Positions 13,534-49,195 of a stretch of DNA of 64,000 nucleotides are shown piece by piece. Origin of the DNA: a virus. The translations under genes and the position numbers were made by a program. Location: the IMG/VR virus record IMGVR_UViG_3300045973_000169, positions 13,000-76,999 of that record; one strand, 5' to 3'. How positions within the stretch are numbered: position 1 is the first letter of the stretch; each line of letters starts with the position of its first letter. The notes under the pieces are model-generated. The model ran no database searches. It was not told the DNA's origin and was given only the letters and a program-made list of their open reading frames with translations.

Positions 13534-13608
13534 AGTGTAAGAAGTGTCATTCTGTCCTTGATGGTAAGTGGTGTTGGAGCTGTATGAAATTTGAATGGGA
13601 GATATAAT

Positions 13609-18323: not shown

Positions 18324-18398
18324 GGGTCTCTCTTCCAGTGTGCAGGAAGATCCGCTCATAACGGATTAAGTAGAGTTCGATTCTCTAGGGACCCACCA
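18324..18398 (+). tRNA. tRNA-Met/Ile2 (anticodon CAT), 75 nt with CCA
   Basis: Full cloverleaf folded: acceptor GGGTCTC/GGGACCC, D TTCC-AGTGTGCA-GGAA, anticodon ATCCG-CTCATAA-CGGAT, T TAGAG-TTCGATT-CTCTA. Confidence 0.85.
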
Positions 18399-27648: not shown

Positions 27649-27858
27649 ATGTTAACATTTTGTTTAATAGTTTTAATAGTTTATCTAACTCCTACTTTAT
27701 TACTTTTAGCACTTTGTGTGTATTTAAGAACAATAGCTAAAGCAGATATTGATATAACACTTAAGAATACATTTAGTTGGTCTTTTGCTTGGCCCTGGTG
27801 GGTAATTATAGGGTTGATTGAAGACTTTAAAAGGAGAAGAGAAAATGATTCTAATTGA
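27649..27858 (+). CDS. small membrane protein (69 aa)
   Basis: Two TM helices. Confidence 0.5.
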   Translation: MLTFCLIVLIVYLTPTLLLLALCVYLRTIAKADIDITLKNTFSWSFAWPWWVIIGLIEDFKRRRENDSN

Positions 27859-28672
27859 TAATAGAGAAGTTAAGTTTGGTAAGTTTCCAAACGGTGAAAG
27901 TAATCTGAACTATAACACTATCGAATTCTGTCATGATAGTGATGTTATTCTTAAGTTTGAGTCTGATATTGATTTATTTAATCTTTATATTCTCAAGAAG
28001 TATATGGATTCTTGTATTTGCTATAATAAGATTTCATTAAAGGTTCTTTATTTCCCTTACTCACGTATGGATAGAGAGAATGATTTCTATACTTTTAATC
28101 TTAAGTATGTTGCTCAGATGATTAATGATATGAACTTCTATGAAGTTATTGTTGGGGATATACATTCAGATGTAGCTCCTGCTTTAATCAATAACTATAC
28201 TGGATATTCTTCTATTGATATTCTGTTTGAAACATTCAGAGATGAAATTGGTATTTCTGATTTTAGTATTATGTTCCCTGATGCTGGTGCACAGAAACGT
28301 TATGGAACTGGCTTTGCTTATCATACTCTTGTTGGATTTAAAGAGCGTGATTTTAGTGATGGGCGTATCCTTGGAATGAAAGTCTTTGGTGATGTACATC
28401 CTGGGAAGCCTGTTGTTATCATTGATGATTTATGTTCTAAAGGTGGAACATTTATTGGAGCAGCCAAAGCTTTGAAAGAAGCTGGTGCTGGTGATATCTA
28501 TCTTATTGTTGGACATTGTGAGAATACTATTGATGAAGGAGCTGTCTTTACATCTGGACTCATTAAGAAGGTCTATACTACTGATAGTATCTATAGTAAT
28601 CCTACAACTATTTGGAATACTTCTGATAGATTGTATGTCCATAAACTAATTGTACATGAAAAGAGATACTGA
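27845..28672 (+). CDS. ribose-phosphate pyrophosphokinase (Prs) family enzyme (275 aa)
   Basis: RBS aaaaggagaagagaaaATG; FGKFPNGES, VLYFPYSRMDRE (PYxxYxRQDR), FPDAGAQKRY and PRPP loop VVIIDDLCSKGGT all align to Prs motifs. Confidence 0.85.
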   Translation: MILIDNREVKFGKFPNGESNLNYNTIEFCHDSDVILKFESDIDLFNLYILKKYMDSCICYNKISLKVLYFPYSRMDRENDFYTFNLKYVAQMINDMNFYEVIVGDIHSDVAPALINNYTGYSSIDILFETFRDEIGISDFSIMFPDAGAQKRYGTGFAYHTLVGFKERDFSDGRILGMKVFGDVHPGKPVVIIDDLCSKGGTFIGAAKALKEAGAGDIYLIVGHCENTIDEGAVFTSGLIKKVYTTDSIYSNPTTIWNTSDRLYVHKLIVHEKRY

Positions 28673-29157
28673 TGAATATAATTCAATCTCCTAAGAATAC
28701 AAATGGATATGAAGTATATTCAATGTTTCTTGCTGGTGGTATATCTGGTTGTGATGATTGGCAGAAGTATGTATGTAATCAATTAGTTGAGCTATATAAG
28801 CCAAATGATGAAGTTTATATATTTAATCCTCGTAGAAAAGGCGACTTAACTAAAGAAGGAGCAATGGCTAGGAAACAAATTCTTTGGGAGTATAAGTATT
28901 TACAATTATGTGATTTTTATGCATTTTGGTTTCCACAAGAAACATTATGTCCAATAACTTTATTTGAATTAGGAAAATACGCTAATTGTAATGCTGTTGT
29001 TGGTATTCATCCTGATTACAAAAGAAGATTTGATCTTGAAATTCAGCTCCCTTTAATAAGTAAAAAGATTAAGATCGTTTATGACCTTGATGAATTTGTT
29101 GAAGCTATTGCAGAAAAAATGTTATTAGAAAGGAAAGATAATGGAGAATGTAATTAG
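28672..29157 (+). CDS. nucleoside 2-deoxyribosyltransferase-like protein (161 aa)
   Basis: MFLAGGISG and FELGKYANCNAVVG resemble NDT-family Rossmann motifs; moderate. Confidence 0.55.
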   Translation: MNIIQSPKNTNGYEVYSMFLAGGISGCDDWQKYVCNQLVELYKPNDEVYIFNPRRKGDLTKEGAMARKQILWEYKYLQLCDFYAFWFPQETLCPITLFELGKYANCNAVVGIHPDYKRRFDLEIQLPLISKKIKIVYDLDEFVEAIAEKMLLERKDNGECN

Positions 29158-29623
29158 ATTTTATGGTAAGAGTAAACCTTTCTTTGAAGGTAGTAACTTT
29201 TATCCTGCAAAATTTAAAGATAGTGCTGGTACTATATGGGATACAACTGAACATTATTTTCAGGCTATGAAGTTTGAAGCTGGATCTGAAATTCAAATTG
29301 GACCAGAAAGCTTTATCCCAATTCGTAAGCATATACATGATCAGCCTACTCCTATGAAAGCAGCAAACGAAGGACGTAGGAGAGATTTTCCACTCCGTAG
29401 TGATTGGGAACAAGTAAAAGACCAAATGATGTATAATGCATTACGTTATAAGTTTACACAGAATCCAGTATGTAAACAGGCTCTTCTTGATACTGGTGAT
29501 GCTGAGTTAATTGAAGCTTCTCCTGTTGATTATTACTGGGCAGAAGGTGCAGATGGTACAGGCAAGAATATGCTTGGTAAACTGTTAGTTAAATTACGAG
29601 AGGAGATCAGAAATGAACAATAA
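29141..29623 (+). CDS. NADAR / YbiA-like (DUF1768) domain protein (160 aa)
   Basis: FYG..FSNF..A.F...G..W.T.EHYFQAMKF, LRYKFTQNP, LLDTGDAELIEASPVDYYWAEGADGTGKNMLGKLL match the NADAR signature. Confidence 0.8.
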   Translation: MENVIRFYGKSKPFFEGSNFYPAKFKDSAGTIWDTTEHYFQAMKFEAGSEIQIGPESFIPIRKHIHDQPTPMKAANEGRRRDFPLRSDWEQVKDQMMYNALRYKFTQNPVCKQALLDTGDAELIEASPVDYYWAEGADGTGKNMLGKLLVKLREEIRNEQ

Positions 29624-31262
29624 GTTATTAGCTGTATTAGCATGTGATGGATATAAGATTGGTCATAAAGATCAAGATGCTCCTGGCGTTGAAAATAAGT
29701 ATTATACATGGACTCCTCGTTCAAACAAATATCTTCCTGAAGTTGAGAAGGTAGTTGTCTTTGGTGTTCAAGGTTTTATTAAGATTCATCTTCTTCAGTT
29801 CTTCAATGAGAACTTCTTTGAATTAGATAAAGAGTATGTTGTCTTTGAATACAAGCGTATTCTTAAATCATACTTGTTCAAAGAGGAGATTGATACAACT
29901 CATATTGAGGAACTGCATGACTTAGGTTACTTGCCTTTAAAGATTAAAGCTATTAAAGAAGGGATAAGAGTCCCAATCAGAACTCCTGTTTTAACTGTTG
30001 AGGTTACTAATGGGAAATTTGCATGGTTGGGTGGATATATTGAAGATATTCTTTCTACTTCTCTTTGGCAGCCAATGACTGTTGCTTCTATTGCTTATGA
30101 GTATAAGAAACTCTTTAAAGAGTTTGCAATGGAAACTGTAGGAAATACTGAATTCTGTAAGTTCCAAGGTCATGACTTTAGTTATCGTGGCTTGATGGCT
30201 GGTCTTGATGCTATTCAGGCTTCAGGTTCAGCTTGGTTACCTTTGTTTGTTGGAACAGATAATATTCCATCTATTCCTTATATGGAAAATGTCTATGGAG
30301 CTGATAGCTCTAAAGAGATTATTGGGTGTAGTGTACCTGCTTCTGAACACAGTGTAGCTGAGACCTATATGGAATTTGATGATGATGGCAATCTTATCCC
30401 TGGTTGGGAAGATGAATATCTCCGTAGATTGATTGTTGATATTTATCCTACTGGGATTGTTTCAATTGTAGCAGATACAATTGATCTCTTTGAGCTTATT
30501 ACTGTTAAGTTAGTTGCTCTTAAAGAAATCATTATGGCTCGTGATGGTAAGACTGTCATTCGTCCTGATAGTGGCAACCCTGCTGATATCCTTTGTGGAT
30601 ATGTTATTAAGAAATTAAATAACCCACTTAATGGTGATGCTGATAAGTACTATCTTCCTTTTGATCGTTGGACTGATGATGGATTTAATGCTTACCAGAC
30701 TACTGATGGAAAAGTTTATAACTTTGATCATAAAGAATTATCTATTGCTGAAACTAAAGGTGTAGTTGAACTTCTTTGGGAGATCTTTGGTGGAACTATC
30801 AATGCCAAAGGATACAAAGAATTAGACTCACACATTGGTACTATCTATGGTGATTCTATTACTATTTCTTTAGCTAGAGAGATCTGTAAAAGACTTAAAG
30901 CTAAAGGCTTTGCTAGTACTAACTGGGTTGCTGGTGTTGGTAGTTACAGCTTGTTAGGACAGTTAAGTCGTGATAGTCTTGGATTTGCACTTAAAGAGAC
31001 CTCTATTACTAGAAATGGTAAAGAGATAGCTGTCTTTAAGGATCCTAAGACTGATGATGGAACTAAGAAATCAGCTAAAGGACGTGTAGTAGTTGTACCT
31101 TCTCCTATTGGTGATGGTTCAATGCGTACTATTGATAACCTTACCAAAGAACAGGAAGAAAAGGTTGGAGCTTTCAACTTACTCCAGACTGTATTTGAAG
31201 ATGGTGTATTGCCTGCAGAAACAACATTAGCAGATATTCGTATTTGTTTAGGTGGAATTTAA
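29613..31262 (+). CDS. nicotinamide phosphoribosyltransferase (NAMPT/NadV) family enzyme (549 aa)
   Basis: N-terminal ACDGYKIGHKDQ matches the NAPRTase-family DSYK.TH signature; the size fits NAMPT-like enzymes. Confidence 0.8.
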   Translation: MNNKLLAVLACDGYKIGHKDQDAPGVENKYYTWTPRSNKYLPEVEKVVVFGVQGFIKIHLLQFFNENFFELDKEYVVFEYKRILKSYLFKEEIDTTHIEELHDLGYLPLKIKAIKEGIRVPIRTPVLTVEVTNGKFAWLGGYIEDILSTSLWQPMTVASIAYEYKKLFKEFAMETVGNTEFCKFQGHDFSYRGLMAGLDAIQASGSAWLPLFVGTDNIPSIPYMENVYGADSSKEIIGCSVPASEHSVAETYMEFDDDGNLIPGWEDEYLRRLIVDIYPTGIVSIVADTIDLFELITVKLVALKEIIMARDGKTVIRPDSGNPADILCGYVIKKLNNPLNGDADKYYLPFDRWTDDGFNAYQTTDGKVYNFDHKELSIAETKGVVELLWEIFGGTINAKGYKELDSHIGTIYGDSITISLAREICKRLKAKGFASTNWVAGVGSYSLLGQLSRDSLGFALKETSITRNGKEIAVFKDPKTDDGTKKSAKGRVVVVPSPIGDGSMRTIDNLTKEQEEKVGAFNLLQTVFEDGVLPAETTLADIRICLGGI

Positions 31263-33672: not shown

Positions 33673-34173
33673 ATGAATTTAATATTAAAAGCATTAAGAT
33701 TTGCAGAAAATAAACATAAAGGACAGACACGTAAGGTTACTGGAGAAGAGTATTTTGTACATCCTTTAATGGTAAGTTATATTGTAGCTAACTATAAGAT
33801 GTCTCAGAACTTAGAGATACTTATTGTAGCTGCTATCTTGCATGATACAGTTGAAGATACAGATACTACTTTTGAAGAGATACTTAAAGAGTTTGGTATG
33901 TTTGTAGCTACATTAGTATTTGAACTTACAGATGATAAGGCTAAGAAAAGGAAGTTAGGAAACTTAGAGTATTGTAAATTGAGATGGTGTGGTCTATCTA
34001 ACTATGCTTTATATCTTAAACTATGTGATAGACTTTACAATATGTCTGATCATCCTACTAAAGAACAACAAGATACTACACTTCTTATACTTGATCATGT
34101 TGAGAGTAAACGTAAATTAACATTATCTCAACAGCGTGTTGTATTTGAAATAAGAAAGGTGATAAATGGTTAA
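33673..34173 (+). CDS. HD-domain small alarmone hydrolase, SpoT/Mesh1-type (p)ppGpp hydrolase (166 aa)
   Basis: ALRFAENKHKGQTRKVTGEEYFVHPLMVSYIV...AAILHDTVEDT matches the RelA/SpoT HD signature (HxGQxR...G.PY..HP..VA...HD.VEDT). Confidence 0.8.
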   Translation: MNLILKALRFAENKHKGQTRKVTGEEYFVHPLMVSYIVANYKMSQNLEILIVAAILHDTVEDTDTTFEEILKEFGMFVATLVFELTDDKAKKRKLGNLEYCKLRWCGLSNYALYLKLCDRLYNMSDHPTKEQQDTTLLILDHVESKRKLTLSQQRVVFEIRKVING

Positions 34174-34702
34174 AGATATTTATGTATTAGTTGGAGCTGC
34201 TGCTCACGGTAAGAGTACATGGGCTGGAAGTAAGACAACTGAATATTTTGCTAAGTGGATGGATGAAAGATCTAAAAATCCAAGTCAAACTGGATCTTAT
34301 GGATATGTAAATGCTGATATGATTAGGAAGCAGCTTTATGGTGATCCTACTATCCAAGGTGATGGCAATGAAGTATTTGGTAAAGTGTTTGAAGCTTATA
34401 CTGGGTTCTTAAGAAACAAGGCAGTTGATTTAATTATTGTAGACAATACATCTCTTAAAGTTAGAGATAGAAAAAGATATTATACATTGGCTCAAACTAT
34501 ATGTGAAGCTATGGGTTATGCTTTTAATTATCACCTTGTATTTTTCCCACCTCATTTTGAGAGAGCTTTAGTTTGGAATAAGCAAAGGAATCGTCAGGTT
34601 CCAGAAGATGTTATTGCAAGACATTGTGCTGTATATCAAGGACCAAGTGAATTTGAAAGAGAAAATTGTATAATCGAGACTGTTATACACAAAGAAAGGT
34701 AA
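34166..34702 (+). CDS. pnk: polynucleotide 5'-kinase, T4 Pnk kinase-domain-like (178 aa)
   Basis: P-loop VLVGAAAHGKSTWAG (T4: GCPGSGKSTWA); NADMIR and IIVDNTSLKVRDRKRY (T4: NRDDYR, IISDTNLNPERR); the C-terminal HLVFFPPHFERALVWNKQRNR region is colinear with T4 Pnk. Confidence 0.8.
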   Translation: MVKDIYVLVGAAAHGKSTWAGSKTTEYFAKWMDERSKNPSQTGSYGYVNADMIRKQLYGDPTIQGDGNEVFGKVFEAYTGFLRNKAVDLIIVDNTSLKVRDRKRYYTLAQTICEAMGYAFNYHLVFFPPHFERALVWNKQRNRQVPEDVIARHCAVYQGPSEFERENCIIETVIHKER

Positions 34703-34705
34703 AAA

Positions 34706-34936
34706 ATGGGTGAGTATAAGACAGAGAAAATTGTATCATTGAATACTCCAGGCTTTACTAGTATCCATGGTAATTGGAGATCTAGACCTAAGAATGGACG
34801 TTTATTTAATGAAGATGAAATTCGCTTGATTAGAGTCCAAGAAGGATCTCTTCGGCATTTAGCTGAAATCCATGGATGTAGTCAAGTCTTAATTCGCAAT
34901 ATTAAAAAAAGATGCATCTATGAAGATGTAATTTAA
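34706..34936 (+). CDS. hypothetical protein (76 aa)
   Basis: RBS aaagaaaggtaaaaaATG. Confidence 0.5.
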   Translation: MGEYKTEKIVSLNTPGFTSIHGNWRSRPKNGRLFNEDEIRLIRVQEGSLRHLAEIHGCSQVLIRNIKKRCIYEDVI

Positions 34937-34949
34937 GAGGAGAAATGAA

Positions 34950-35387
34950 ATGAAAAATATTATGATTCAACCGATTAACCGGTTTAAGAAGATTCTTGTT
35001 GGTGATGACTGTGGCGAAGTATTCGACCCTACACAGGGCAAATTTCTTACTGGGTGTACCGAGAGTTACATCTTTCAGAAAGAACGCTGTGGTGAGCTTG
35101 TAGCTTACAAAGAAGAAGGTTCTGATGCAGTGTATGTTGGCTTTGCTATTATGCATAAAGAAGATATGAAGAAAGGTTATGCTAAAGCAACTACTCGTGA
35201 GAAAGCTTTCCTTGTAGCTGATAAATCTTATCATGCTGACTTCTATACTAATAAGAATGGGGTTGTAGGTGTTCCTCATCTTATTCGTGATAATGTCTAT
35301 TACTTCGCTAAACGTATTGAGCGTTATTTCAAAGGTTGTACTGTCCCATTTTGGGTTAATGAAATTGTTGCTCATTACGAAGCATAG
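34950..35387 (+). CDS. hypothetical protein (145 aa)
   Basis: RBS aagaggagaaatgaaATG. Confidence 0.6.
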   Translation: MKNIMIQPINRFKKILVGDDCGEVFDPTQGKFLTGCTESYIFQKERCGELVAYKEEGSDAVYVGFAIMHKEDMKKGYAKATTREKAFLVADKSYHADFYTNKNGVVGVPHLIRDNVYYFAKRIERYFKGCTVPFWVNEIVAHYEA

Positions 35388-35487
35388 TAGTCAATAGTTA
35401 AAGCTTACTGTAGGTGAACCTACTAGCTGGTGGGCTGTGTAAGTTGTCTGTTTATAGCAGAGCAAACCTATTTATTAAGGAGTATAT

Positions 35488-35670
35488 ATGTTTGAAATAA
35501 TTGGTATTATGTTATGTATTCTTGCTATTTTACATATGCAATATCCTCACAAAACAAAATTTTACATAGAACGTATTATGATTTTATTTAACTACTGCCC
35601 TAACTGTAAAAAGTTTTCAATGTATACAATAAAGAATTATAAGGTATGTTCTAGTTGTCGTAAACGGTAA
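35488..35670 (+). CDS. membrane-anchored zinc-ribbon protein (60 aa)
   Basis: TM helix then CPNC...CSSC. Confidence 0.45.
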   Translation: MFEIIGIMLCILAILHMQYPHKTKFYIERIMILFNYCPNCKKFSMYTIKNYKVCSSCRKR

Positions 35671-35674
35671 TACT

Positions 35675-36025
35675 ATGTCTGGTGTATTATGTAAAGATAA
35701 ATCAGATAAGAAGTATGCGATGTTTAGACATTCAGTAAAGAATCTTCGTATTAGATATGGTATTAGAGCTGATGAAGAATTGTATTTTAAATTATGTAAG
35801 TATATTAAAAATGCTAAAGGAAACACAGAGTTTACTCATCCTGATGGGACAAGAGTTGTCTTTGTTGACAAGCAATCGTGTACTCGATCTGTATGGCGTA
35901 TATACTTCAAAGATAAATGTATAATTGCTGCTTATGATAAGACAAGACATATATTATGTACTGTCTTACCTGCTAATCTTAAAGATGAAGATATAATTTA
36001 TAAACGATGGTTAGAAGAAGAATAA
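35675..36025 (+). CDS. hypothetical protein (116 aa)
   Basis: ORF follows the upstream stop after 4 nt. Confidence 0.55.
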   Translation: MSGVLCKDKSDKKYAMFRHSVKNLRIRYGIRADEELYFKLCKYIKNAKGNTEFTHPDGTRVVFVDKQSCTRSVWRIYFKDKCIIAAYDKTRHILCTVLPANLKDEDIIYKRWLEEE

Positions 36026-36047
36026 TCTTATAAACAACGGAGAGTAT

Positions 36048-36344
36048 ATGTTAAAGGCAAGAAAAGTTTATTTAGTTAAAATAGCTCCTGCTAATCTTAA
36101 TAAATTTATTTCTTTCTCATCTAATTTTATTCCTACTTTAGATGAGATAAAAGATATAATCGAAAATTTACATGAAGAGAATCCTTTACCATTTGATTTG
36201 ATATATGAATGTCATTGTGGATTAGATATTTGGGGAGTCCCTTCTGAATGTAATGGAAAGACTATCCGTTGGTGGAAAAATAAAGGTGAAGCTGTTTCAA
36301 GAGGATTCATCTCAATAAAAGAACAAAATATTTATTTTAAGTAG
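36048..36344 (+). CDS. hypothetical protein (98 aa)
   Basis: RBS aacggagagtatATG. Confidence 0.55.
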   Translation: MLKARKVYLVKIAPANLNKFISFSSNFIPTLDEIKDIIENLHEENPLPFDLIYECHCGLDIWGVPSECNGKTIRWWKNKGEAVSRGFISIKEQNIYFK

Positions 36345-36350
36345 GTAGTA

Positions 36351-36929
36351 ATGAAGAATAAAAGAGTTTGTGTAGATTTAGATAATACACTATGTGATTT
36401 AACTGGTTATGTTTGTGATGAAATTAATTTAGGATTAGGATTAGCTGATCCGGTATTTAATCAACGTATTGAAACATATAATTATCTACAAAATACTTAT
36501 GGAGCTTGGATAGAAGAATTTTGGACTACTCCTGGAATTTATGATAAACATATTAAACCATTAGAAGGTTCAATAGAATTTATTAGAGAACTTATCGCTA
36601 TAGTAGGTAGATTCAATGTATCTATTGTAACAGCGACTCCAAAAGGGCTTGAAGAAGAAAAGAAACAATTTTGTTTCAAGAACTATGGGATTAGTAATGT
36701 TATATGTACCCATGAGAAATGGAAGCATACTAAAGGAGCTATTCTTATAGATGATTATTGGAAACATTGTATGGATCATTTATTACAGAATGATGATCCT
36801 TGTATTTTGTTTAACTATGAAAATGATTATCCTTATGCTGATGCTAAGTATATTACTTTCCCAATAACCAATAAGTTACATAGAGCTGATTCTTATAAGA
36901 AAGTATTAGAGATTATAAAGGAGAAATAA
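36351..36929 (+). CDS. HAD-superfamily phosphatase (NT5C-like nucleotidase or Pnk-type 3'-phosphatase) (192 aa)
   Basis: HAD motif I VCVDLDNTLCD at the N-terminus; the size fits 5'(3')-deoxyribonucleotidase-type HAD enzymes. Confidence 0.7.
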   Translation: MKNKRVCVDLDNTLCDLTGYVCDEINLGLGLADPVFNQRIETYNYLQNTYGAWIEEFWTTPGIYDKHIKPLEGSIEFIRELIAIVGRFNVSIVTATPKGLEEEKKQFCFKNYGISNVICTHEKWKHTKGAILIDDYWKHCMDHLLQNDDPCILFNYENDYPYADAKYITFPITNKLHRADSYKKVLEIIKEK

Positions 36930-36930
36930 C

Positions 36931-37653
36931 ATGGCACGTTATGCTATAAGTGACATACATGGTTGTTTAAGAACCTTTAAGAAAGTGTTACGTTCAGTTG
37001 ACTTTAATAAGAGCGATACGCTTATATTACTAGGTGATTATATTGATAGAGGGTTAGACTCTAAAGGTGTTATTCAATACATTATTGATCTTATTGCAGA
37101 AGGCTATGATGTTATTCCTTTGTGTGGGAATCATGAACAATTCCTTATAGAGTCTATTGGTAATAATGCAGTTCAAACTATGTGGGAACGTAATGGTGGA
37201 GATAAATGCCTTAGAAGTTATGGTGTTAATCATCCTAGTTTAATGCCACATGAACATATAAGTTTTATAAGATCTTTACCTCTTATGCATGTTGAAAGAG
37301 ATTATGTCTTTGTTCATGCAGGGTTAGATTTCTGTAAAGAAGATCCTATTGAAGAATCAAGTGATGAGACTATTCTTTGGAGTAGGATGCATCGCCTTGC
37401 TGGAGATTCACGTAGGAAGAAACTTGGTGGAAGAGTCTTGGTTACAGGACATACTCCTACAGATAAGAAAACAATGATTACAATGGCTATGGGTGAAGAT
37501 ATGATTACTATTGACAGAGGCTGTGTCTTTGAAGGATCTAATTATAACCATATGGCTATTTTTAATCTAGATACAAAACAGTTTAATTTTATTAAAAATA
37601 TTGATACTTTAGAAAATGATTGGGTGAGTAGACATGGATATGCAGGACGATAG
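36931..37653 (+). CDS. PPP-family Ser/Thr phosphatase / ApaH-like metallophosphatase (240 aa)
   Basis: All signature motifs present: DIHG, GDYIDRG, GNHE, VHAG, GHTP. Confidence 0.85.
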   Translation: MARYAISDIHGCLRTFKKVLRSVDFNKSDTLILLGDYIDRGLDSKGVIQYIIDLIAEGYDVIPLCGNHEQFLIESIGNNAVQTMWERNGGDKCLRSYGVNHPSLMPHEHISFIRSLPLMHVERDYVFVHAGLDFCKEDPIEESSDETILWSRMHRLAGDSRRKKLGGRVLVTGHTPTDKKTMITMAMGEDMITIDRGCVFEGSNYNHMAIFNLDTKQFNFIKNIDTLENDWVSRHGYAGR

Positions 37654-38071
37654 GCTTTTAGTTCATATGAATTATAGAAAATATACACCTGAAAACATTG
37701 TCAGTCTAGAGCCAAATGAAGTGTTTGTCTTCGGTAGCAATACCGAAGGCATTCACGGAGCTGGTGCTGCTAGAGCTGCATTGGATTTGTTTGGTGCTAA
37801 GTTTGGACAAGCAGAAGGATTACAAGGTCAGTCTTATGCTATTGTAACTAAAGATCTTGAATTAGGTATGAGGAGTATCCCTCTTGGAGATATATGTAAA
37901 AGTATATTTAAATTCCTTGAGTTTGCTAAAGAGAATGGAGATAAAATTTTTTATGTAACTAAATTAGGTTGCGCTTTAGCTGGATATTCTATTGATGAAA
38001 TAGGTAAGCTTTTTATGGGATTTAATATTCCGAATAATGTTGTTTTACCAGTTGAATTTTGGGAGTGTTAG
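37634..38071 (+). CDS. conserved Rossmann-like protein with FVFGSNTEGIHGAGAARAA motif (145 aa)
   Basis: The glycine-rich motif looks familiar from phage and bacterial proteins, but the family name is not recalled with certainty. Confidence 0.55.
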   Translation: MDMQDDRLLVHMNYRKYTPENIVSLEPNEVFVFGSNTEGIHGAGAARAALDLFGAKFGQAEGLQGQSYAIVTKDLELGMRSIPLGDICKSIFKFLEFAKENGDKIFYVTKLGCALAGYSIDEIGKLFMGFNIPNNVVLPVEFWEC

Positions 38072-38072
38072 A

Positions 38073-38330
38073 ATGAAAGTTGAAATTATTCACGAAGAAG
38101 TAAAGCCAGTTATCCCGCCAGTTAAAGAAGTAGTTATTACTCTTACAGCGAAAGAAGCTTTAATCCTTAAGGTTTTAATGGGACATATAGCTGGAGTTAG
38201 TGGTGGACATGAGCTGAGTATTTTTAGAGATAAAATCTGGGAATCTTTAAGTAAAGATTTACCTGGGATTTATTCTGATAAATTTAAAGCAGTTGAAAAT
38301 GAATGTAAAAATGTTAAATTAGCATTTTAG
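38073..38330 (+). CDS. hypothetical protein (85 aa)
   Basis: RBS ttgggagtgttagaATG. Confidence 0.5.
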   Translation: MKVEIIHEEVKPVIPPVKEVVITLTAKEALILKVLMGHIAGVSGGHELSIFRDKIWESLSKDLPGIYSDKFKAVENECKNVKLAF

Positions 38331-38430
38331 TATAAGGAGTAAATATGTATCAAGCTGTAAGCATATAAATGCAAATGTAGCTATCTGCATTAATGTGTTA
38401 TTAACATCTATCAAAACTAAGGAGTCTCAA

Positions 38431-39168
38431 ATGATAGGTGAAAAGTTTGGTAAGTTAACAGTTGTCTATTTCAATGATTTAAATAAGAGAAAAGAGAAAC
38501 TATGGTTATGTCTTTGTGATTGTGGAAAAGAAATAATTGTAAAAACAAGAAATCTTAAAATTGGAGCAACAAAAAGTTGTGGTTGTTTATCAACAGGCCC
38601 AAAAATTTCTGATCTTACTGGGAATAAATTTGGTGATTTAGAAGTTATATCTTATGCACATCAAGATAAATGGAGAACAAGTTTTTGGAATTGTAGATGT
38701 ATTTGTGGTAATTATACTGTTGCTAGTTCCGCAAATCTTAAATCTGGAAATCGTATTTCTTGTGGATGTAAACATGATGAATGGAAACATAATAAACCAA
38801 AAGGTCAAGATAGTCCACATTGGAATTCAGATATAATTGATAGAAATAGCAGACGACTTGACTATGAAGCAAAAGACTGGGCAATAAGAATTAAAGAACG
38901 TGATAAATATAAGTGTTTAGTTTGTGGTAAATCTCCAAGTGGAGAACTAACAAGTCATCATCTATATAGCTATAATGACTATATAGATTTAAGATATGAT
39001 ATTGATAATGGAATTACTTTATGCGAGCAATGTCATTATTCTTTCCATAAAAAATATGGATTCAAAAAGAACACAAAAGAACAATTTAAGGAGTGGAAAA
39101 ATGAGTTATATGGCAGTAATAGCACGGTTGAAGAATGTCCGTGCTCATCCGAATGCAGACCGGATTAA
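38431..39168 (+). CDS. HNH homing endonuclease with N-terminal Cys-rich DNA-binding region (245 aa)
   Basis: RBS aaggagtctcaaATG; C-terminal SHHLYSYNDY...NGITLCEQCHYSFH; the 3' end overlaps the RNA ligase start by 68 nt. Confidence 0.75.
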   Translation: MIGEKFGKLTVVYFNDLNKRKEKLWLCLCDCGKEIIVKTRNLKIGATKSCGCLSTGPKISDLTGNKFGDLEVISYAHQDKWRTSFWNCRCICGNYTVASSANLKSGNRISCGCKHDEWKHNKPKGQDSPHWNSDIIDRNSRRLDYEAKDWAIRIKERDKYKCLVCGKSPSGELTSHHLYSYNDYIDLRYDIDNGITLCEQCHYSFHKKYGFKKNTKEQFKEWKNELYGSNSTVEECPCSSECRPD

Positions 39169-40471
39169 ATTAGCTAATTGTTTAGGCTATCAAGTTATTG
39201 TAGGGCTTGAGGCTAAAGATGATGATATTGTTATTTTATTTCCTGATGATGGGCAATTAAGTCATGAATATATTTTTAATAATAACCTATATAACAAAGC
39301 AGAGATGAATAAAGATCCTAGTGTTAAAACTGGATTCTTTGATCATAAACGTAGAGTAAGATGTCAGACATTTAGAGGAGAGAAAAGTGAAGCTTATACT
39401 GCTGATATCAGAAGCGTGGAATTTACTGGGGTTGATATTGAAAGTCTCTATGTGGGTGTCCGTTTTGATGTTCTTAATGATATTAGCATTTGCAATAAGT
39501 ATATAACTCAAGCCACTAAGGATGCTGCTAATAAGAATGGGAATAAAGATAAGGTTAAACTTAATGTTATTCTTAAGAAAATGTTCCCTGAGCATATAGA
39601 TACTGAACAGATTAGATTTGCAAGAGATGAAGATCTAATTGGATTAGTTACTATTACTCATAAGCTTCATGGTACAAGTGCTAGAACTGGATATATTAAT
39701 ACTCCTGTTGAAGTACCTTTAAAATGGTATCATAAACTTTGGAATCAGTATGTTAAGTTAGTTGACTATCTCCCTCCTAAGTATACTCACGAGCAGAATG
39801 AAGCTTTATATTTTGCTCCTACTACTATCAAGAAATGGAAAACTATTTTTGGTACACGTAGGGTAATTAAAGGTCCTGTTAATGAAGAAGCAACTGATTA
39901 TCGTTCTTTATGTGCTAAACGATTAGCTCCTTTTATTGAAAAGGGTGAAATCTGGTATTATGAAATTGTAGGGTATGAAGATACTGGTGCTCTTATTATG
40001 GGGAGTGTTTCTACTAAAGAAATGCCTAAAGAATTCCAAAAAAGGTTTGGTGAAACTATTACTTACAAGTATGGTTGCTTACCTGGGACATGGAATATTT
40101 ATGTTTATCGTATTACTCATCAGAATGAAGATGGTGTTATCTATGAACTTCCATGGGCACAAGTAAAAGCTAAATGTAATAATGCTGCTATTAAGCATGT
40201 TCCTGAAATTGATGTTATTTTAACAGAAGTAGCTTTAGATGGTACAATTGATGTTGAAGTTTTAAAGCAAACAATTGAACATTACACTGAAGATGAAGAT
40301 ATTGCTGAACCCCTTGATGCTTCTCATATACGTGAAGGTATCTGTGTTAGGATTGATAATCTTGAGACTGGTAAAATGAAAATATTCAAGAATAAAACTT
40401 TTGTATTTAAGGTGCTTGAAGGTATTGTTAAGGATTCTGGTGTAGTTGATACAGAAGAAGCTGAAGGGTAG
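39101..40471 (+). CDS. RNA ligase, Rnl2-type KxHG nucleotidyltransferase (456 aa)
   Basis: RBS aaggagtggaaaaATG; motif I ITHKLHGTSARTG resembles T4 Rnl2 EKIHGTN; a ~170-aa N-terminal extension precedes the NTase domain. Confidence 0.75.
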   Translation: MSYMAVIARLKNVRAHPNADRIKLANCLGYQVIVGLEAKDDDIVILFPDDGQLSHEYIFNNNLYNKAEMNKDPSVKTGFFDHKRRVRCQTFRGEKSEAYTADIRSVEFTGVDIESLYVGVRFDVLNDISICNKYITQATKDAANKNGNKDKVKLNVILKKMFPEHIDTEQIRFARDEDLIGLVTITHKLHGTSARTGYINTPVEVPLKWYHKLWNQYVKLVDYLPPKYTHEQNEALYFAPTTIKKWKTIFGTRRVIKGPVNEEATDYRSLCAKRLAPFIEKGEIWYYEIVGYEDTGALIMGSVSTKEMPKEFQKRFGETITYKYGCLPGTWNIYVYRITHQNEDGVIYELPWAQVKAKCNNAAIKHVPEIDVILTEVALDGTIDVEVLKQTIEHYTEDEDIAEPLDASHIREGICVRIDNLETGKMKIFKNKTFVFKVLEGIVKDSGVVDTEEAEG

Positions 40472-42234: not shown

Positions 42235-42948
42235 ATGAAACATATAGTGGTTGGAGATGTACACTCTAATCATCTTGCTCTTATTAAAATCATGTTTAAA
42301 TATCCCCCTAGTGAGTATAAATATATATTCACTGGGGATTATAATGATTATAGAGAAGAGAATCCTAGAGAGAAATCTAATTATATAACCACTATATTTC
42401 AGGTTATGAAGATAGTTAATCTCCATGGTGGAGTTGCTCTTCTTGGTAACCATGATGATAAATTGAGAAGATGGTTTAATGGTAGGAATGTAGAAATTAG
42501 AGACGGTTTAACTGAGACTATCTATGATATTGAAAAGTTTCGTAAAGAACCTTATGGACAGCTTCATCTTGATACAATCAATGCTTTTCTTAATAATCTC
42601 CCTTTAACTCATATCGAAGAAATTAATGGAATAGTTTATAAGTTTGCTCATGCAATCCATCCAGAATATGATGAAGTGTATATCCAAACAGGACATAATC
42701 CACCATCTGAGAAAAAATGGAAAGAGCATTGTATTTGGGGGTATCCTAGAACTCTTGATGATGAGAAGGTTTTTCATAGAGTTCACTATTGGAATATTAA
42801 AGAGTATAATGATAGAGTCCCTGAGAATACATTCAAGATAGCTGGACATTATCATGAAGTATTTAAGAATGATAAGTTTCTTATACTTGATGCTACTCCT
42901 AACATTGCAACTTATATTATAGAAGATAACTTAATAGAGGAATGGTAA
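42235..42948 (+). CDS. calcineurin-like metallophosphoesterase (237 aa)
   Basis: GDVHSN, TGDYNDY, LLGNHDD and AGHYH motifs. Confidence 0.8.
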   Translation: MKHIVVGDVHSNHLALIKIMFKYPPSEYKYIFTGDYNDYREENPREKSNYITTIFQVMKIVNLHGGVALLGNHDDKLRRWFNGRNVEIRDGLTETIYDIEKFRKEPYGQLHLDTINAFLNNLPLTHIEEINGIVYKFAHAIHPEYDEVYIQTGHNPPSEKKWKEHCIWGYPRTLDDEKVFHRVHYWNIKEYNDRVPENTFKIAGHYHEVFKNDKFLILDATPNIATYIIEDNLIEEW

Positions 42949-42949: not shown

Positions 42950-44170
42950 ATGTTTAGATCTTTAAATGATAAAGCCTACTTAGTTGGAGGCGCAGTACGT
43001 GATCTCCTATTAGGCCATGAACCTAAAGATCGAGATTATGTTATTGAATGTACAGAAGCTGAATTTGAGAGAGTATTTCCCGATGCTGAAAAGGTCGGGA
43101 ATACTTTCCCTGTTTATTTACATCCTGAGACTGGTGATGAGATAGCTTTAACAAGAACAGAAAGACCAACAGAAACTAAATTTGGTGCTCTTGGTTCATA
43201 CCAAGGATTTGAAATTATTGGAGTTGGAGTGTCTATTCTTGATGATCTTAGAAGAAGAGATTTTACTATTAACTCTATTGCTCAAAAATATCTTACGAAA
43301 GAAATCATTGATCCTACTAATGGTAAGTTTGATTTAAAAAATAAGATGTTACGCTGTGTTAATTCTGAAGCTTTTAATGATGACCCTTTAAGAATCTATA
43401 GAGCTTGTAGATTTGCTGCTAGATTTGATTTTAAAGTTGAGATGCATACATTTAAATTAATGAGAGACAATTGTCATAATCTTTTCTTTGTAGAAAAAGA
43501 AAGAGTAGTTAATGAATTAAAGAAAATGTATTCTCAGACTGATAAGCCAGGTATATTCTTTAGGTTATTATTTGAGCTTGGTGGTATGGCACATCATTTT
43601 GATCCTATTTTAGACCTTACTGTTATCCCTGCTGGACCTAAACAATACCATGGTACTAATACTGGGTTTGATCATACAATGGAAGTGATAGATAGATGTA
43701 AGGCTAATGGATTAAGCTTTGATTGTTTTATAGCTTGTCTATTCCATGATACAGGTAAAGCTTCAACTGATCCTTCTATATTACCTCACCATTATGGGCA
43801 TGAAAATGGGTCTTATCGTATTAATAAAGAGTTCTTTGCTGAGAATAGGTTTGATGCTAGTACGGTAGATTTAGCTTTAACTGTAGGGAAGAATCATATG
43901 AAGACTCATGTTATAACTAAGATGAGGACTAATAAAGTAGTTGATTTTCTTAGAGGAATTAGAAGATTAGATGAGTTTATTGATTGTTGTAATTGTGATC
44001 ATCCTTTTACTGATAATACTTTAGATTATATCAATCTTTTCAAACAAGTAAGAAAAGAAACTGTTGTTGAAATTCCTAAAGAAACAAAAGATAAATATGA
44101 ATTTGTTGGTAGGTTATACACTAAAGCCCTTGGGCAAAAGATAAAGGAATTTAAAGAAAATGGCAAATGA
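42950..44170 (+). CDS. cca: class II tRNA nucleotidyltransferase (CCA-adding enzyme) with C-terminal HD domain (406 aa)
   Basis: LVGGAVRDLLLG...DRDYV, RRDFTINSIA, DPLRIYRACRFAARF and the HD motif LFHDTGK. Confidence 0.85.
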   Translation: MFRSLNDKAYLVGGAVRDLLLGHEPKDRDYVIECTEAEFERVFPDAEKVGNTFPVYLHPETGDEIALTRTERPTETKFGALGSYQGFEIIGVGVSILDDLRRRDFTINSIAQKYLTKEIIDPTNGKFDLKNKMLRCVNSEAFNDDPLRIYRACRFAARFDFKVEMHTFKLMRDNCHNLFFVEKERVVNELKKMYSQTDKPGIFFRLLFELGGMAHHFDPILDLTVIPAGPKQYHGTNTGFDHTMEVIDRCKANGLSFDCFIACLFHDTGKASTDPSILPHHYGHENGSYRINKEFFAENRFDASTVDLALTVGKNHMKTHVITKMRTNKVVDFLRGIRRLDEFIDCCNCDHPFTDNTLDYINLFKQVRKETVVEIPKETKDKYEFVGRLYTKALGQKIKEFKENGK

Positions 44171-44713: not shown

Positions 44714-44936
44714 AATAAAAGAATCAGGGATCTATTTAGTTATAGGACCACCTGAATGTGTTTCTTTGTTACCTACTGAAAATATATTATTTCTTTATCC
44801 TAATGGTGATCTTGTTATGGAAGGTAATAATTATATGGATTGTTTAAATGATGGTGAAGATGAGATAATTGAAGTTATCTGTCTTGCTAAATCAGAGAAC
44901 CATCCATCTTTGAGAGAAGGTGTTTTTGATGAGTGA
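44700..44936 (+). CDS. hypothetical acidic protein (78 aa)
   Basis: ORF overlapping both neighbours. Confidence 0.45.
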   Translation: MKLNKIKESGIYLVIGPPECVSLLPTENILFLYPNGDLVMEGNNYMDCLNDGEDEIIEVICLAKSENHPSLREGVFDE

Positions 44937-46062
44937 TGTTAACAAATGGTTAACTCAAAATACTATATTTAAAGGTGTGTTAGGGTCTAGGGCTTATGGT
45001 ATCCATAATGCTGATAGTGATTATGACTATAGAGCTGTAGCTATTGCTCCTAAACAATATTATCTTGGATTAGATAATTTTGAACAACAGGAAACTAAAA
45101 ATCCTGATTCGACAGTTTTTGATATACAAAAATTTACAAAACTTGCTTTAGAATGTAATCCTAATATTATTGAGTATTTATTTCTCCATCCAGAGAATAT
45201 TCTTATCAATACTCCTTATTGGGATATATTAGTTGAGAATAGAGATATATTCCTAAGCAAGAGAGCTAAACATAGATATCTAGGATATGCTTATTCTCAA
45301 CTTAAAAGAGTCCAATCTCATAAGCAATGGTTGCTTAATCCTGTAGACCATAAACCTACCCGTGAGGAGTACGGATTGCCTGCTACAGAGTCTTTGAATA
45401 GAGAACTAATAGGACAGATAGAGTTAGTGACTAAAGACTGTTTAAAAGAGAATTTAGACGTTATACTTAATAGTTCTGCAGATGAGTTAACTATTACTGG
45501 ATTAAGAAACTATTTAGAGTTTGATGTAAGAGGTGCTCTTGATGAAGCTTTTGCTGATTTTGTTTATCCTACTATATTTAACTTATTAATTAATAAGATA
45601 GATGTAATGTCAACTCTTGCAATAGATAATTTCTCAGAAGAGATTGTAGCTGTATATACTAAAGAGAAGTCTTATTCTTCTGCTATGAGTAGATGGAAAC
45701 AATACCAGAATTGGGTTGATACAAGAAACCCTGCTAGAGCTGAACTTGAAGCTAAGTTTGGATATGATACAAAACATATAGGACATGTATTTAGGCTCCT
45801 TAAGCAAGGACAAGAAATCCTGTTGGATAAAACATTAACTGTTAAATTAAAACCAGAGGATAAAGAAGAGATTCTTGCTATTAAAGCTGGTAAATTTACA
45901 TATGATGAAATAATAGATTTAGCTTCTATGAGGATGGCTTTCTTTGAAGAGTTATATGAGAGATCTACTCTCCCACATAGTCCAGATTTTAATAAAGCAA
46001 ATACATTGCTAGTAAAAACAATAGAAAAATTTTATGAGGATAAAAATGAAACAAATTGTTAA
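44929..46062 (+). CDS. Pol-beta-superfamily nucleotidyltransferase (377 aa)
   Basis: ATG after gagagaaggtg; GVLGSRAYGIHNADSDYDYRAV equals the G[SG]x9-13 DxD minimal NTase motif. Confidence 0.65.
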   Translation: MSDVNKWLTQNTIFKGVLGSRAYGIHNADSDYDYRAVAIAPKQYYLGLDNFEQQETKNPDSTVFDIQKFTKLALECNPNIIEYLFLHPENILINTPYWDILVENRDIFLSKRAKHRYLGYAYSQLKRVQSHKQWLLNPVDHKPTREEYGLPATESLNRELIGQIELVTKDCLKENLDVILNSSADELTITGLRNYLEFDVRGALDEAFADFVYPTIFNLLINKIDVMSTLAIDNFSEEIVAVYTKEKSYSSAMSRWKQYQNWVDTRNPARAELEAKFGYDTKHIGHVFRLLKQGQEILLDKTLTVKLKPEDKEEILAIKAGKFTYDEIIDLASMRMAFFEELYERSTLPHSPDFNKANTLLVKTIEKFYEDKNETNC

Positions 46063-46895: not shown

Positions 46896-46925
46896 GGAGG
46901 GTCAAAAATGGCCCTCCTATTCTTT
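46896..46925 (+). terminator. rho-independent terminator
   Basis: GGAGGG(TC)-AAAAAT-(G)GCCCTCC hairpin followed by TATTCTTT. Confidence 0.55.
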
Positions 46926-48317: not shown

Positions 48318-48773
48318 ATGTTAAACTTAGATAAAAAGAATTTCTATAATGCAGGTTTAAATAAACAATATACAAAGGTTTATAAAGTTGTAACTGTAAT
48401 TAAAGATGTAATGCTTAGTATGAATGCTCAAAGAGAAAATTATGGTACTATAATCCCTTCTGTAATGAAAATAAAGTATGAGTATGGTAAAGTATCATAT
48501 CCTAAAGTTGGTAAATTGTTCTGTTTCCCTGATTATCAATCAGCAAAAAAATGGTGTGATAAAATGACTGATGGAATAATTATAGTAGGGAAAGGAACTA
48601 ATGTTGAAGAATGTGAGATCTCATATCTTTTAGGAGAAAGAGGATTCAGGCATGTTGAAAGATTTTGGAGTACAAAGAATAAATCAACTATCTCTGAAGC
48701 TATTTGGCACGTCCCTACAAAAACTTATACTTGTGATTCTTTCACTCCACTTAGGAGAGTAATAGGATGCTAA
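48318..48773 (+). CDS. hypothetical protein (151 aa)
   Basis: ATG after tttggagaaacaaATG. Confidence 0.55.
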   Translation: MLNLDKKNFYNAGLNKQYTKVYKVVTVIKDVMLSMNAQRENYGTIIPSVMKIKYEYGKVSYPKVGKLFCFPDYQSAKKWCDKMTDGIIIVGKGTNVEECEISYLLGERGFRHVERFWSTKNKSTISEAIWHVPTKTYTCDSFTPLRRVIGC

Positions 48774-49195
48774 TAGATCAAATCAGAGCAGATAGAATTG
48801 TTGCATTTAAAAACAAAGAAAATATCAAGAAAAACTTACTAGGCTGTCTAATTGGGGATGCCTGTAAGATTGATAAAGAGCCTACTGATGCTTTTGTACT
48901 ATCTATTATTAAGAAGTTTATTGATGGTGCTAAGATTGTAATTGAAAATGCTAAAGATACTGATTATGAGTTCTATCAAGCTAACCAGGAGATTGATATT
49001 CTCGAAACTTATCGTCCTAAACAATTGACTGAAGATGATATTAGGGGTAAAATTTATAGGCTTATAACTGCTGGGTCTATTGAACAGCCTAACCTTCTTA
49101 ATCTTGGTGATATTATGAAATATTTTAAAACTAATTTTGAAGGTCAATATGATGGTGCATTAGTATCTAAATTAGCTAAAAAGATGCTAGTATGA
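48767..49195 (+). CDS. GatB/YqeY-domain protein (142 aa)
   Basis: EIDILETYRPKQLTEDDIRGKI...AGS......LGDIM.....F.GQYDGALVSKL aligns with B. subtilis YqeY (ELDILEVYLPEQLSEEELR...MGKVMG...GKADGSLINKL). Confidence 0.7.
   Translation: MLIDQIRADRIVAFKNKENIKKNLLGCLIGDACKIDKEPTDAFVLSIIKKFIDGAKIVIENAKDTDYEFYQANQEIDILETYRPKQLTEDDIRGKIYRLITAGSIEQPNLLNLGDIMKYFKTNFEGQYDGALVSKLAKKMLV

Follow-up and report, generated by a model that had tools for sequence, protein, structure and literature searches.

Do the genes at positions 33,673 to 40,471 of the DNA analysed here amount to a pathway for the repair of RNA ends and, if so, from which enzyme families is it built? The DNA is a 64,000-nucleotide (nt) stretch, referred to below as the window, of IMG/VR virus record IMGVR_UViG_3300045973_000169 (positions 13,000 to 76,999 of that record). 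The original prediction, made from the sequence alone, read these genes as a disassembled version of the phage T4 Pnkp-Rnl healing-and-sealing pathway with an alarmone hydrolase at its head. Every open reading frame (ORF) that it named lies where it had been placed, on the + strand and with its catalytic motifs intact. With a probability of roughly 0.6, the region belongs to a long accessory block of co-directional genes in a phage of some 206 kb, and the block encodes an RNA-end healing-and-sealing toolkit, most likely for tRNA ends. The T4 pathway is the poorer template: the genes are better described as a dispersed bacterial Pnkp toolkit with an Rnl5-like ligase, the kinase and one of two metallophosphoesterases being nearest to modules of the Clostridium thermocellum enzyme (CthPnkp).

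Composition of the putative repair block

The cluster had been taken to end at position 40471. The repair block reaches beyond that point, to 46 kb, and thereby gains a second metallophosphoesterase, a CCA-adding enzyme and RlaP; a macro-domain-fold gene inside the original limits had likewise been overlooked. The genes considered below are as follows.

33673..34173, + strand: small alarmone hydrolase (SAH) with a Mesh1/SAH-type HD domain, 166 amino acids (aa); HD_4 6.3e-16, 58.9 bits against a cut-off of 27.2
34166..34702, + strand: stand-alone polynucleotide 5'-kinase domain, 178 aa; AAA_33 2.8e-9; PHROG 505 'polynucleotide kinase' 1.2e-10
36351..36929, + strand: HAD-superfamily phosphatase, NT5C-like, 192 aa; NT5C 2.2e-4 (below the Pfam cut-off); PHROG 420 1.6e-17
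36931..37653, + strand: lambda-phosphatase/ApaH-like dinuclear metallophosphoesterase (here PPP1), 240 aa; Metallophos 4.1e-16; PHROG 246 NinI-like 8.5e-52
37634..38071, + strand: predicted macro-domain-fold protein of the A1S_2505 family, 145 aa; NF049995 1.4e-36
39101..40471, + strand: ATP-dependent RNA ligase, 456 aa, or 453 aa from 39110; motif THKLHG (K185); PHROG 968 'RNA ligase' 2e-55
42235..42948, + strand: second metallophosphoesterase (here PPP2), Pnkp-phosphatase-like, 237 aa; TIGR04075 bacter_Pnkp phosphatase region 3.8e-9
42950..44170, + strand: CCA-adding tRNA nucleotidyltransferase with an HD domain, 406 aa; PolyA_pol 1.4e-22, PolyA_pol_RNAbd, HD
44920..46062, + strand: RlaP, the RNA ligase-associated Pol-beta family nucleotidyltransferase, 380 aa; PF10127 6.8e-25, 88.6 bits against a cut-off of 23

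Predicted architecture of the RNA ligase

The ligase had been assigned to the Rnl2 type on the basis of its KxHG motif. In the AlphaFold2 (AF2) model of the protein (pLDDT 91), an N-terminal OB domain is followed by the nucleotidyltransferase domain, and there is no C-terminal domain. Residues 1 to ~130 form the β-rich OB-like domain, and the chain ends 24 residues past K429 of motif V, with only two short helices in this tail. A Foldseek search of the model returned thirteen entries of the Naegleria gruberi RNA ligase NgrRnl, the Rnl5 prototype, as the best fold matches, each covering both domains (E 3e-12 to 9e-11, target-normalised TM-scores of 0.65-0.71), whereas T4 Rnl2 matched the catalytic core only (E 3e-5, TM 0.37). 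Rnl2 ligases such as T4 Rnl2 and REL1 carry a C-terminal α-helical domain and no N-terminal domain, the opposite of the arrangement predicted here, and the Rnl2 assignment was rejected on account of this reversed domain order and the core-only match; the identification of the protein as a ligase with a THKLHG motif stands. In Deinococcus radiodurans DraRnl and in NgrRnl (PDB 5cot, 6vt*), by comparison, an OB domain likewise precedes the nucleotidyltransferase domain, no C-terminal domain is present, motif I reads TxKxHG, and motifs Ia through V are found.

Conservation within the family fits this arrangement. Across 43 diverse members, residues K185, G188, R250, E285, G288, Y321, E409, G410, K427, and K429 are invariant, and T183, H187, R251, and Y319 are kept in at least 90%. 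These positions correspond to motifs I (TxKxHG), Ia, III, IIIa, IV (E409-G410), and V (K427, K429), so that the downstream motifs, whose absence would have spoken against a ligase, are in place. The pattern also fits the residues essential in DraRnl (T163, K165, H167, G168, K186, E230, F281, E305). Homologues of the ligase carry PF09414 RNA_ligase together with PF21189, an OB-fold domain that takes its name from RNA ligase PHA02142, and in BFVD an NgrRnl-like label is already attached to viral homologues.

The original prediction was right that the first ~170 residues have no counterpart in T4 Rnl2. A counterpart does exist in Rnl5 ligases, and because fold and domain order match those enzymes, the 'extra' domain that had been singled out as unusual is a known Rnl5 signature. 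This N-terminal OB signature was described in 2007 for DraRnl (Raymond & Shuman), and the same work proposed a likeness of the DraRnl N domain to tRNA-binding OB folds. Our fold matches reproduce that likeness: in Foldseek the N domain of the window ligase alone also matches the PheRS-beta B2, MetRS-C, Trbp111-like, and EMAPII tRNA-binding OB folds, a resemblance about which the original prediction had asked.

Sequence searches against solved structures gave no match, either with the single sequence or with the 43-member profile, and for this reason the class of the ligase rests on its predicted fold. Membership in TIGR02306 (RNA_lig_DRB0094) was not reached: the ligase scores 22.6 bits against a cut-off of 151.15, over its N-terminal half only, and its homologues reach 50.5 bits at most. 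The protein is also ~110 residues longer than DraRnl and NgrRnl (453-456 versus 337-342 aa). Judged by motif spacing relative to the published DraRnl numbering, ~45 of the additional residues fall between motifs I and Ia and ~60 between motifs IIIa and IV. On its model, then, the ligase is of Rnl5 architecture and belongs to a divergent, longer clade of >3,600 proteins. Of these full-length relatives, 369 are sequenced phage records, and mycobacteriophages account for 296 of them. To our knowledge, no member of this long Rnl5-like clade has been characterised. Rnl5 homologues have previously been noted in Aeromonas, Caulobacter, Mycobacterium, and Sinorhizobium phages.

A free-standing endonuclease gene overlaps the ligase start by about 60-70 nt.

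38395..39168, + strand: free-standing HNH endonuclease; Pfam HNH 4.3e-7

The closest relative of the window, locus L002, has no HNH gene at this position, consistent with a homing-endonuclease-like mobile element that probably inserted beside a conserved gene.

A stand-alone polynucleotide kinase

The kinase had been described as T4-Pnk-like and without its phosphatase half. The second part of that description holds, as the 178-aa protein consists of the kinase domain only, while relatives of ~300 aa in other phages bear HD or HAD_PNKP domains. A word-indexed search found 2 homologues of the kinase and an exhaustive search 353. In a 40-member alignment, residues G15, K16, R54, R102, and R141 are invariant and D51, D93, T95, and R143 are present in at least 90% of sequences; the protein has the P-loop, the DxxR pair, and the distal Arg residues of the T4 Pnk/CthPnk clade. 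D51 and R54 align with the Asp-x-x-Arg pair of CthPnk, the Asp of which is the catalytic base in that enzyme.

Comparison of the kinase profile with the PDB identified the CthPnkp kinase as the best match (8.5e-26), followed by PSTK (6e-22), T4 Pnk (1.9e-19), Capnocytophaga Pnkp1 (7.5e-18), mammalian PNKP (5e-13), and then generic P-loop proteins. No deoxynucleoside monophosphate (dNMP) kinase occurs among the 60 profile matches listed, in which the sole nucleotide kinase is adenylate kinase 9, matching at the P-loop only (6.6e-5). An identity as a dNMP kinase, which had been named as a threat to the original prediction, was rejected because the profile matches Pnk enzymes. By this comparison of profiles, the protein is a polynucleotide kinase (Pnk) nearer to the bacterial Pnkp module than to that of T4.

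Linkage of the ligase to other putative repair genes

The grouping of these genes was assessed in 80 IMG/VR loci around ligase relatives together with other loci, which give 46 lineages when clustered at 70% ligase identity. A Pnk-family kinase is encoded within 10 kb of the ligase in 17 of the 46 lineages and, in 13 of those 17, within 2 kb (binomial p 9e-7 versus a uniform spread). Twelve lineages encode RlaP no further than 10 kb from the ligase, and in nine of them the distance is at most 2.5 kb (p 4e-4). An unbiased Pfam census of the same loci set 143 ORFs lying no more than 1.7 kb from the ligase against 144 ORFs separated from it by 6.5 kb or more; AAA_33, HD, Metallophos, and RlaP head the near group. 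AAA_33 occurs 11 times near the ligase and twice far from it (p 0.009), HD nine times versus at most once (p 0.009), and RlaP five times versus at most once (p 0.1). Given the lineage distances and the census, the association of ligase, kinase, HD, and RlaP is real. The clustering originally proposed thus holds for kinase and ligase, whose grouping exceeds chance and recurs in unrelated phages, and does not hold statistically for the metallophosphoesterases and the HAD, the latter having been found in 1 of 46 lineages. The neighbour searches for HAD, PPP2, and the macro gene used single sequences at low sensitivity, and their counts are lower bounds. Neither phosphatase type has a statistical link to the ligase, yet gene order is conserved for PPP2 and the HAD in close relatives.

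Individual loci illustrate the recurrent arrangement. In L002, the ligase of which is 74% identical, the order is NADAR, NAMPT, SAH-kinase, NT5C-HAD, ligase, PPP2, Thg1, RlaP, YqeY, and reverse transcriptase; PPP1 and the macro gene, like the HNH gene, are missing there. Locus L004 (ligase 61% identical) places ligase, metallophosphoesterase, kinase, and RlaP inside 4 kb. ERZ1426817, a 48% relative, encodes a CCA enzyme, RlaP, a kinase, and YqeY, and there a single gene separates the ligase from an NT5C-HAD upstream of it. Among cultured phages, the gene directly after the ligase in Bacillus phage vB_BcoS-136 is annotated as a polynucleotide kinase and is a kinase-HD fusion, and in Mycobacterium phage JoeDirt a T4-like Pnkp is encoded 3.6 kb upstream of the ligase.

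The two nucleotidyltransferases downstream of PPP2 belong to families that act on tRNA or damaged RNA 3' ends. The CCA enzyme additionally matches PRK10885, a multifunctional CCA addition/repair protein (2.2e-73), and PHROG 2244 (2.7e-86). RlaP adds 1-2 nucleoside monophosphates (NMP) to damaged RNA 3' ends and restores nucleotides taken by 'smart' ribotoxins such as RloC (PMC12776372). In L002, a Thg1-family 3'-5' polymerase (12969-13742 of that locus) fills the slot that the CCA enzyme occupies in the window, between the Pnkp-like phosphoesterase and RlaP; CCA enzyme and Thg1 look interchangeable at this position.

Phosphatases and a predicted macro-domain protein

Three candidate phosphatases lie in the block. 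PPP2 has a single significant relative among solved structures, the CthPnkp phosphatase (4j6o, 1.8e-5), with which it has the block GNHDxKLxRxxNGRxVxIxxGL in common, and its metal-binding family motifs read GDVH, GDYNDY, GNHD, HAIH, and GHYH. Its orthologue in L002 lies ~0.5 kb downstream of the ligase and matches TIGR04075 at 3.5e-12. Judged by its family, and given this resemblance to the phosphatase module of Pnkp, PPP2 is the strongest candidate for the healing of 2',3'-phosphate ends. PPP1, with motifs DIHG, GDYIDRG, GNHE, HAG, and GHT, had been called lambda-phosphatase-like, and correctly so: its best solved relative is lambda phosphatase (1g5b, 4.9e-12), it matches ApaH (PRK00166, 3.1e-20), and its match to the CthPnkp phosphatase 4j6o is weaker (7.4e-5). 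The scores of PPP1 and PPP2 against the Pnkp-phosphatase module all fall far below the equivalog cut-off. Since lambda phosphatase has 2',3'-cyclic phosphodiesterase activity, as does the CthPnkp phosphatase domain (PMC2190708), PPP1 is a possible end-healing enzyme as well.

The third enzyme is a separate HAD, as originally proposed, with the motifs DLDNT (DxDxT), VTAT, and IDD. NT5C is its only Pfam relative, its L002 orthologue is on record with an NT5C match, and no solved relative was found by sequence. An identity as the Pnkp-type HAD of T4 was considered and rejected: HAD_PNKP (PF25109) gave no match, and BLASTP against a mycobacteriophage Pnkp aligned motif I only (E 0.17). In three phages (the window, L002, and ERZ1426817), the HAD lies 0.5-2.2 kb upstream of the ligase. 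Any contribution of the HAD or of PPP1 to repair is inferred.

These findings bear on an alternative that is unlikely overall and survives best of those considered, in which kinase, ligase, RlaP, and CCA enzyme constitute the whole pathway and HAD, PPP1, and SAH are independent accessory enzymes of a hypervariable region. The HAD would then act on nucleotide pools, PPP1 on Ser/Thr-phosphoproteins or Ap4A-type dinucleotides, and SAH on the stringent response. The NT5C affinity of the HAD accords with such a role, as do the greater proximity of PPP1 to lambda Ser/Thr phosphatase and ApaH than to the Pnkp phosphatase, its absence from L002, the lack of significant Metallophos enrichment beside the ligase, and the many unrelated accessory functions that are mixed in the surrounding 25 kb. 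Against it stand the recurrence of the HAD upstream of the ligase in three phages and the 2',3'-cyclic phosphodiesterase activity of lambda phosphatase itself, as well as the gene order around SAH described below.

The macro gene lies between PPP1 and the ligase and overlaps the end of PPP1 by 20 nt. Its product belongs to the A1S_2505 family ('phage non-structural protein'), which has >4,200 relatives and no Pfam family. The protein has no Pfam Macro match and a weak profile match to TARG1. Its AF2 model (pLDDT 94) resembles DarG and TARG1/C6orf130 most closely, and also CHIKV nsP3 and Poa1p, among the top PDB folds, with TM-scores of ~0.5-0.6 at marginal E values of 3e-3 to 0.1; a designed serine hydrolase at rank 4 is the sole non-macro entry. 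The modelled macro fold suggests that the A1S_2505 family may remove ADP-ribose from nucleic acids or proteins.

The alarmone hydrolase and its position beside the kinase

The assignment of the first gene to SpoT/Mesh1-type HD hydrolases is well founded. SAH matches the spoT_relA hydrolase region (TIGR00691, 7.9e-25) and has no synthetase domain; its best solved relative is human MESH1/HDDC3 (3nr1, 2.8e-17), followed by bacterial SAHs and a ppApp hydrolase, and the catalytic residues H30, H57-D58, E61-D62, D119, and N123 are present. We also considered whether SAH corresponds to the HD domain of phage kinase-HD fusions, and rejected this, as those HDs match CCA-enzyme, GlnD, and HDIG types and not RelA/SpoT. 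A role of the hydrolase against alarmone-based SAS toxins, also part of the original prediction, has by analogy a precedent in PaSpo, the SAH of Salmonella phage SSU5, which neutralises toxSAS toxins. Like PaSpo and MESH1, the window SAH is a single-domain RelA/SpoT-family HD hydrolase, phage-encoded as PaSpo is; unlike them, its gene end overlaps the start of a Pnk gene, by 8 nt, in an RNA-repair neighbourhood.

That overlap raises the tentative idea that SAH is a dedicated RNA 3'-end (pyro)phosphatase and, with Pnk, forms a previously undescribed healing pair in which 3' ends would be treated by SAH and 5' ends by Pnk. Together with kinase and CCA enzyme, it would restore tRNA CCA ends pyrophosphorylated by toxSAS of the CapRel/FaRel2 type. 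We regard this as doubtful. MESH1 and the bacterial SAH ATfaRel do restore aminoacylation of FaRel2-pyrophosphorylated tRNA (bioRxiv 10.1101/2021.04.30.441581), and both the MESH1 match and the complete set of catalytic residues in the window SAH are compatible with such chemistry. The pairing with a Pnk-type kinase is seen in three phages, namely the window, L002, and the distant L047, where the order is kinase, SAH, metallophosphoesterase, and ligase; this arrangement also speaks against SAH being an unconnected accessory gene. On the other hand, nucleotide alarmone hydrolysis or NADPH phosphatase activity would explain the gene equally well, and SAH lies near the ligase in only 2 of the 46 lineages (L002 and L047), which favours an accessory role.

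A survey of 80 phage SAH loci from IMG/VR, not dereplicated and without a background control, gives a mixed picture. Full-length CCA enzymes, Pnk kinases, or RlaP are found near roughly one in six of these loci, which is suggestive (a full-length CCA enzyme within 1.3 kb in L093, L115/L116, and L124; Pnk within 4 kb in five; RlaP in two). About five in six have no such neighbours, a proportion that counts against an RNA-healing SAH and for an accessory one. In L135, L153, and L156, the best SAH match and the match to the CCA-enzyme query fall in the same giant frame of ~1,150-1,250 codons from stop to stop; these frames are possibly polyvalent proteins.

Proposed pathway and points against it

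We return to the preferred reading of the block as an RNA-end healing-and-sealing toolkit. Host ribonucleases would leave 5'-OH and 2',3'-cyclic or 3'-phosphate ends. The stand-alone Pnk kinase would phosphorylate the 5'-OH, and a metallophosphoesterase, with PPP2 as the best candidate and PPP1 as a possible one, would open or remove the 2',3'-cyclic or 3'-phosphate. RlaP could re-add nucleotides trimmed on the 3' side, and the CCA enzyme could rebuild 3'-CCA ends. The Rnl5-like ligase, the OB domain of which resembles tRNA-binding modules, would then join the 3'-OH and 5'-phosphate ends of a break that lies in a base-paired context. The Mesh1-like hydrolase, the macro protein, and NADAR/NAMPT may represent neighbouring counter-defence functions directed at alarmones or pyrophosphorylated ends, at ADP-ribose adducts, and at NAD+ depletion, respectively. 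The substrates of the enzymes, the order of reactions, and any part played by HAD or PPP1 are inferred from the families to which the proteins belong.

Several observations weigh against this pathway. Kinase and ligase are 4.4 kb apart in the window, with seven unrelated or unknown ORFs between them, and a search of limited sensitivity found no kinase within 10 kb in 29 of the 46 ligase lineages. In the Pfam census, Metallophos shows no significant excess near the ligase (8 near versus 5 far, p 0.28), and the HAD groups with NT5C nucleotidases rather than with Pnkp-type HADs. Promoter-like sites are rarer than in shuffled sequence and terminator-like sites occur at chance level; operon limits are not definable. 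The specificity of the ligase may differ from that of DraRnl and NgrRnl in view of its low TIGR02306 score and its ~110 extra residues. The characterised Rnl5 enzymes, the physiological substrates of which are unknown, seal duplex nicks in a Mn-dependent manner; the 3'-OH side of such a nick is RNA, and DNA is tolerated on the 5'-phosphate side. The repair of tRNA anticodon loops by this Rnl5-like family is for that reason put forward as a proposal, by analogy.

The same substrate preference, the sensitivity of Deinococcus to ionising radiation upon loss of DraRnl, and the activity of T4 Pnk and mammalian PNKP, both matched by the kinase profile, on DNA ends too would suit a ligase serving phage DNA at nicks with an RNA 3'-OH side (primer remnants, ribonucleotide patches), with kinase and phosphatases cleaning DNA ends, yet the RNA-specific neighbours (CCA enzyme or Thg1, RlaP, YqeY), the tRNA-binding-type OB fold of the ligase N domain, and the lack of replication genes in the immediate block, according to the ORF list and Pfam annotation, make this reading very unlikely.

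Genome context

The window is a gene-dense, one-strand, AT-rich stretch of a phage-like genome (GC 29-35% beyond 12 kb). Identical copies of the ligase gene are found in a 206,638-bp JGI metagenome contig and in a 55-kb Logan contig (SRR35489367). No near-identical DNA was found among sequenced phages, and the phage is known solely from metagenomes. Five small ORFs between kinase and HAD have no family match in Pfam or PHROG, and no PADLOC defence-system model matches any of the repair genes. Two further features lie downstream of the block.

46896..46917, + strand: intrinsic-terminator-like hairpin with a 9-bp stem (6 G-C pairs) followed by a T-rich tail
48767-49195: YqeY

The hairpin is the sole convincing one downstream of the block, and it is weak evidence because terminator-like sites are, overall, no more numerous than shuffled sequence would yield.

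Base composition changes sharply within the window, from a GC content of 43-48% in 1-10000 to 29-35% in 12000-64000; GC skew is positive throughout. Directly upstream of the block, a NAD+/ADP-ribose set at 27818-31262 comprises a Prs-like phosphoribosyl pyrophosphate synthetase, a nucleoside deoxyribosyltransferase-like protein, NADAR, and NAMPT. In both Mycobacterium phage JoeDirt and Bacillus phage vB_BcoS-136, NAMPT is likewise encoded close to the ligase and Pnk genes. Further upstream, 22602-23978 encodes a 458-aa protein with DUF2828, DUF7788, and VWA domains, which we take to be a TROVE/Ro-like RNA-binding module of the kind linked to RNA repair in the jumbo-phage survey discussed below.

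Downstream, a retron-type reverse transcriptase of 254 aa occupies 50162-50926 (PADLOC RT_III-A 6e-54; Pfam RVT_1 1e-21). The ORF that follows it, 50930-51808, has no match, and its counterpart in L002 is recorded as Gad2-like. The 440 nt upstream of the reverse transcriptase show no excess RNA folding (z = 0.00), and small ORFs fill this stretch in public gene calls. Three tRNA sites are disputed between programs: Rfam reports a tRNA at 17828-17909 (33 bits) that ARAGORN does not, and the tRNA-Leu(taa) and tRNA-Met(cat) reported by ARAGORN (10721-10807 and 18324-18398) fall below the Rfam gathering score.

Relation to known repair systems

The block invites comparison with two characterised systems. 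With the bacterial Pnkp-Hen1 system of Clostridium thermocellum, it has in common the modules already described, CthPnkp being the best match of the kinase and the only solved match of PPP2, with PPP1 matching too. CthPnkp unites kinase, metallophosphoesterase, and Rnl4 ligase in one polypeptide, whereas the window encodes them as separate genes over 8 kb with an Rnl5-like ligase; no Hen1 methyltransferase was seen in the window. With T4 Pnkp and Rnl1/Rnl2, which counter the PrrC anticodon nuclease, it has the logic in common: a 5'-kinase, removal of the 3'-phosphate, and an ATP-dependent ligase. T4 also encodes RlaP. T4 fuses its kinase to a DxDxT (HAD) phosphatase, whereas the window kinase stands alone, the nearby HAD is NT5C-like, and the ligase is, on its predicted fold, neither Rnl1 nor Rnl2.

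The primary survey of RNA repair is reportedly that of Burroughs and Aravind from 2016, on which the jumbo-phage work of Iyer and colleagues is said to build. In the part of its text available to us, the latter (Iyer, Anantharaman, Krishnan, Burroughs, Aravind 2021, Viruses 13:63; PMC7824862) describes RNA repair gene sets of jumbo phages. The inventory covers 5'-phosphate-dependent RNA ligases, polynucleotide kinases, HAD, and calcineurin-like and HD phosphoesterases, and it extends to RlaP, a CCA enzyme or Thg1, TROVE, an HD alarmone phosphodiesterase, Macro/NADAR, and NAD+ salvage. Stand-alone rather than fused repair modules are described there as common, and the split of kinase and phosphatase, which had been counted among the unusual parts of the locus, is for that reason not unusual. 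Most phage ligases are placed by the same account in Rnl1 or Rnl2, with 'rare divergent versions' outside, as compared with the predicted Rnl5 architecture of the window ligase. The coupling of SAH to the kinase is not described in that part of the survey. The locus is a well-supported, fairly ordinary example of a toolkit that this 2021 survey had already catalogued in jumbo phages.

This locus fills in a known category and leaves current views of phage counter-defence as they were. PHROG 968, a phage 'RNA ligase' family with >3,600 metagenomic relatives and members in ~370 sequenced phages, ~300 of them mycobacteriophages, is predicted to have Rnl5 architecture. Its genomic ties to polynucleotide kinases, HD phosphoesterases, and RlaP provide a testable counter-defence RNA-repair context for Rnl5 enzymes. 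The separately encoded healing enzymes offer a compact set for dissecting which phosphoesterase handles which damaged end, and the locus raises the testable possibility that RNA ends are substrates of phage alarmone hydrolases. If the doubtful pairing of SAH and Pnk were correct and combined with CCA enzyme, RlaP, and ligase, the phage would reverse tRNA pyrophosphorylation by toxSAS of the CapRel/FaRel2 type as well as nuclease cuts, and the ligases of the long Rnl5-like clade would be directed to tRNA, making use of their tRNA-binding-type OB domain. The main value of the locus lies in the context that it supplies for this clade and in the idea of an SAH-kinase pair.

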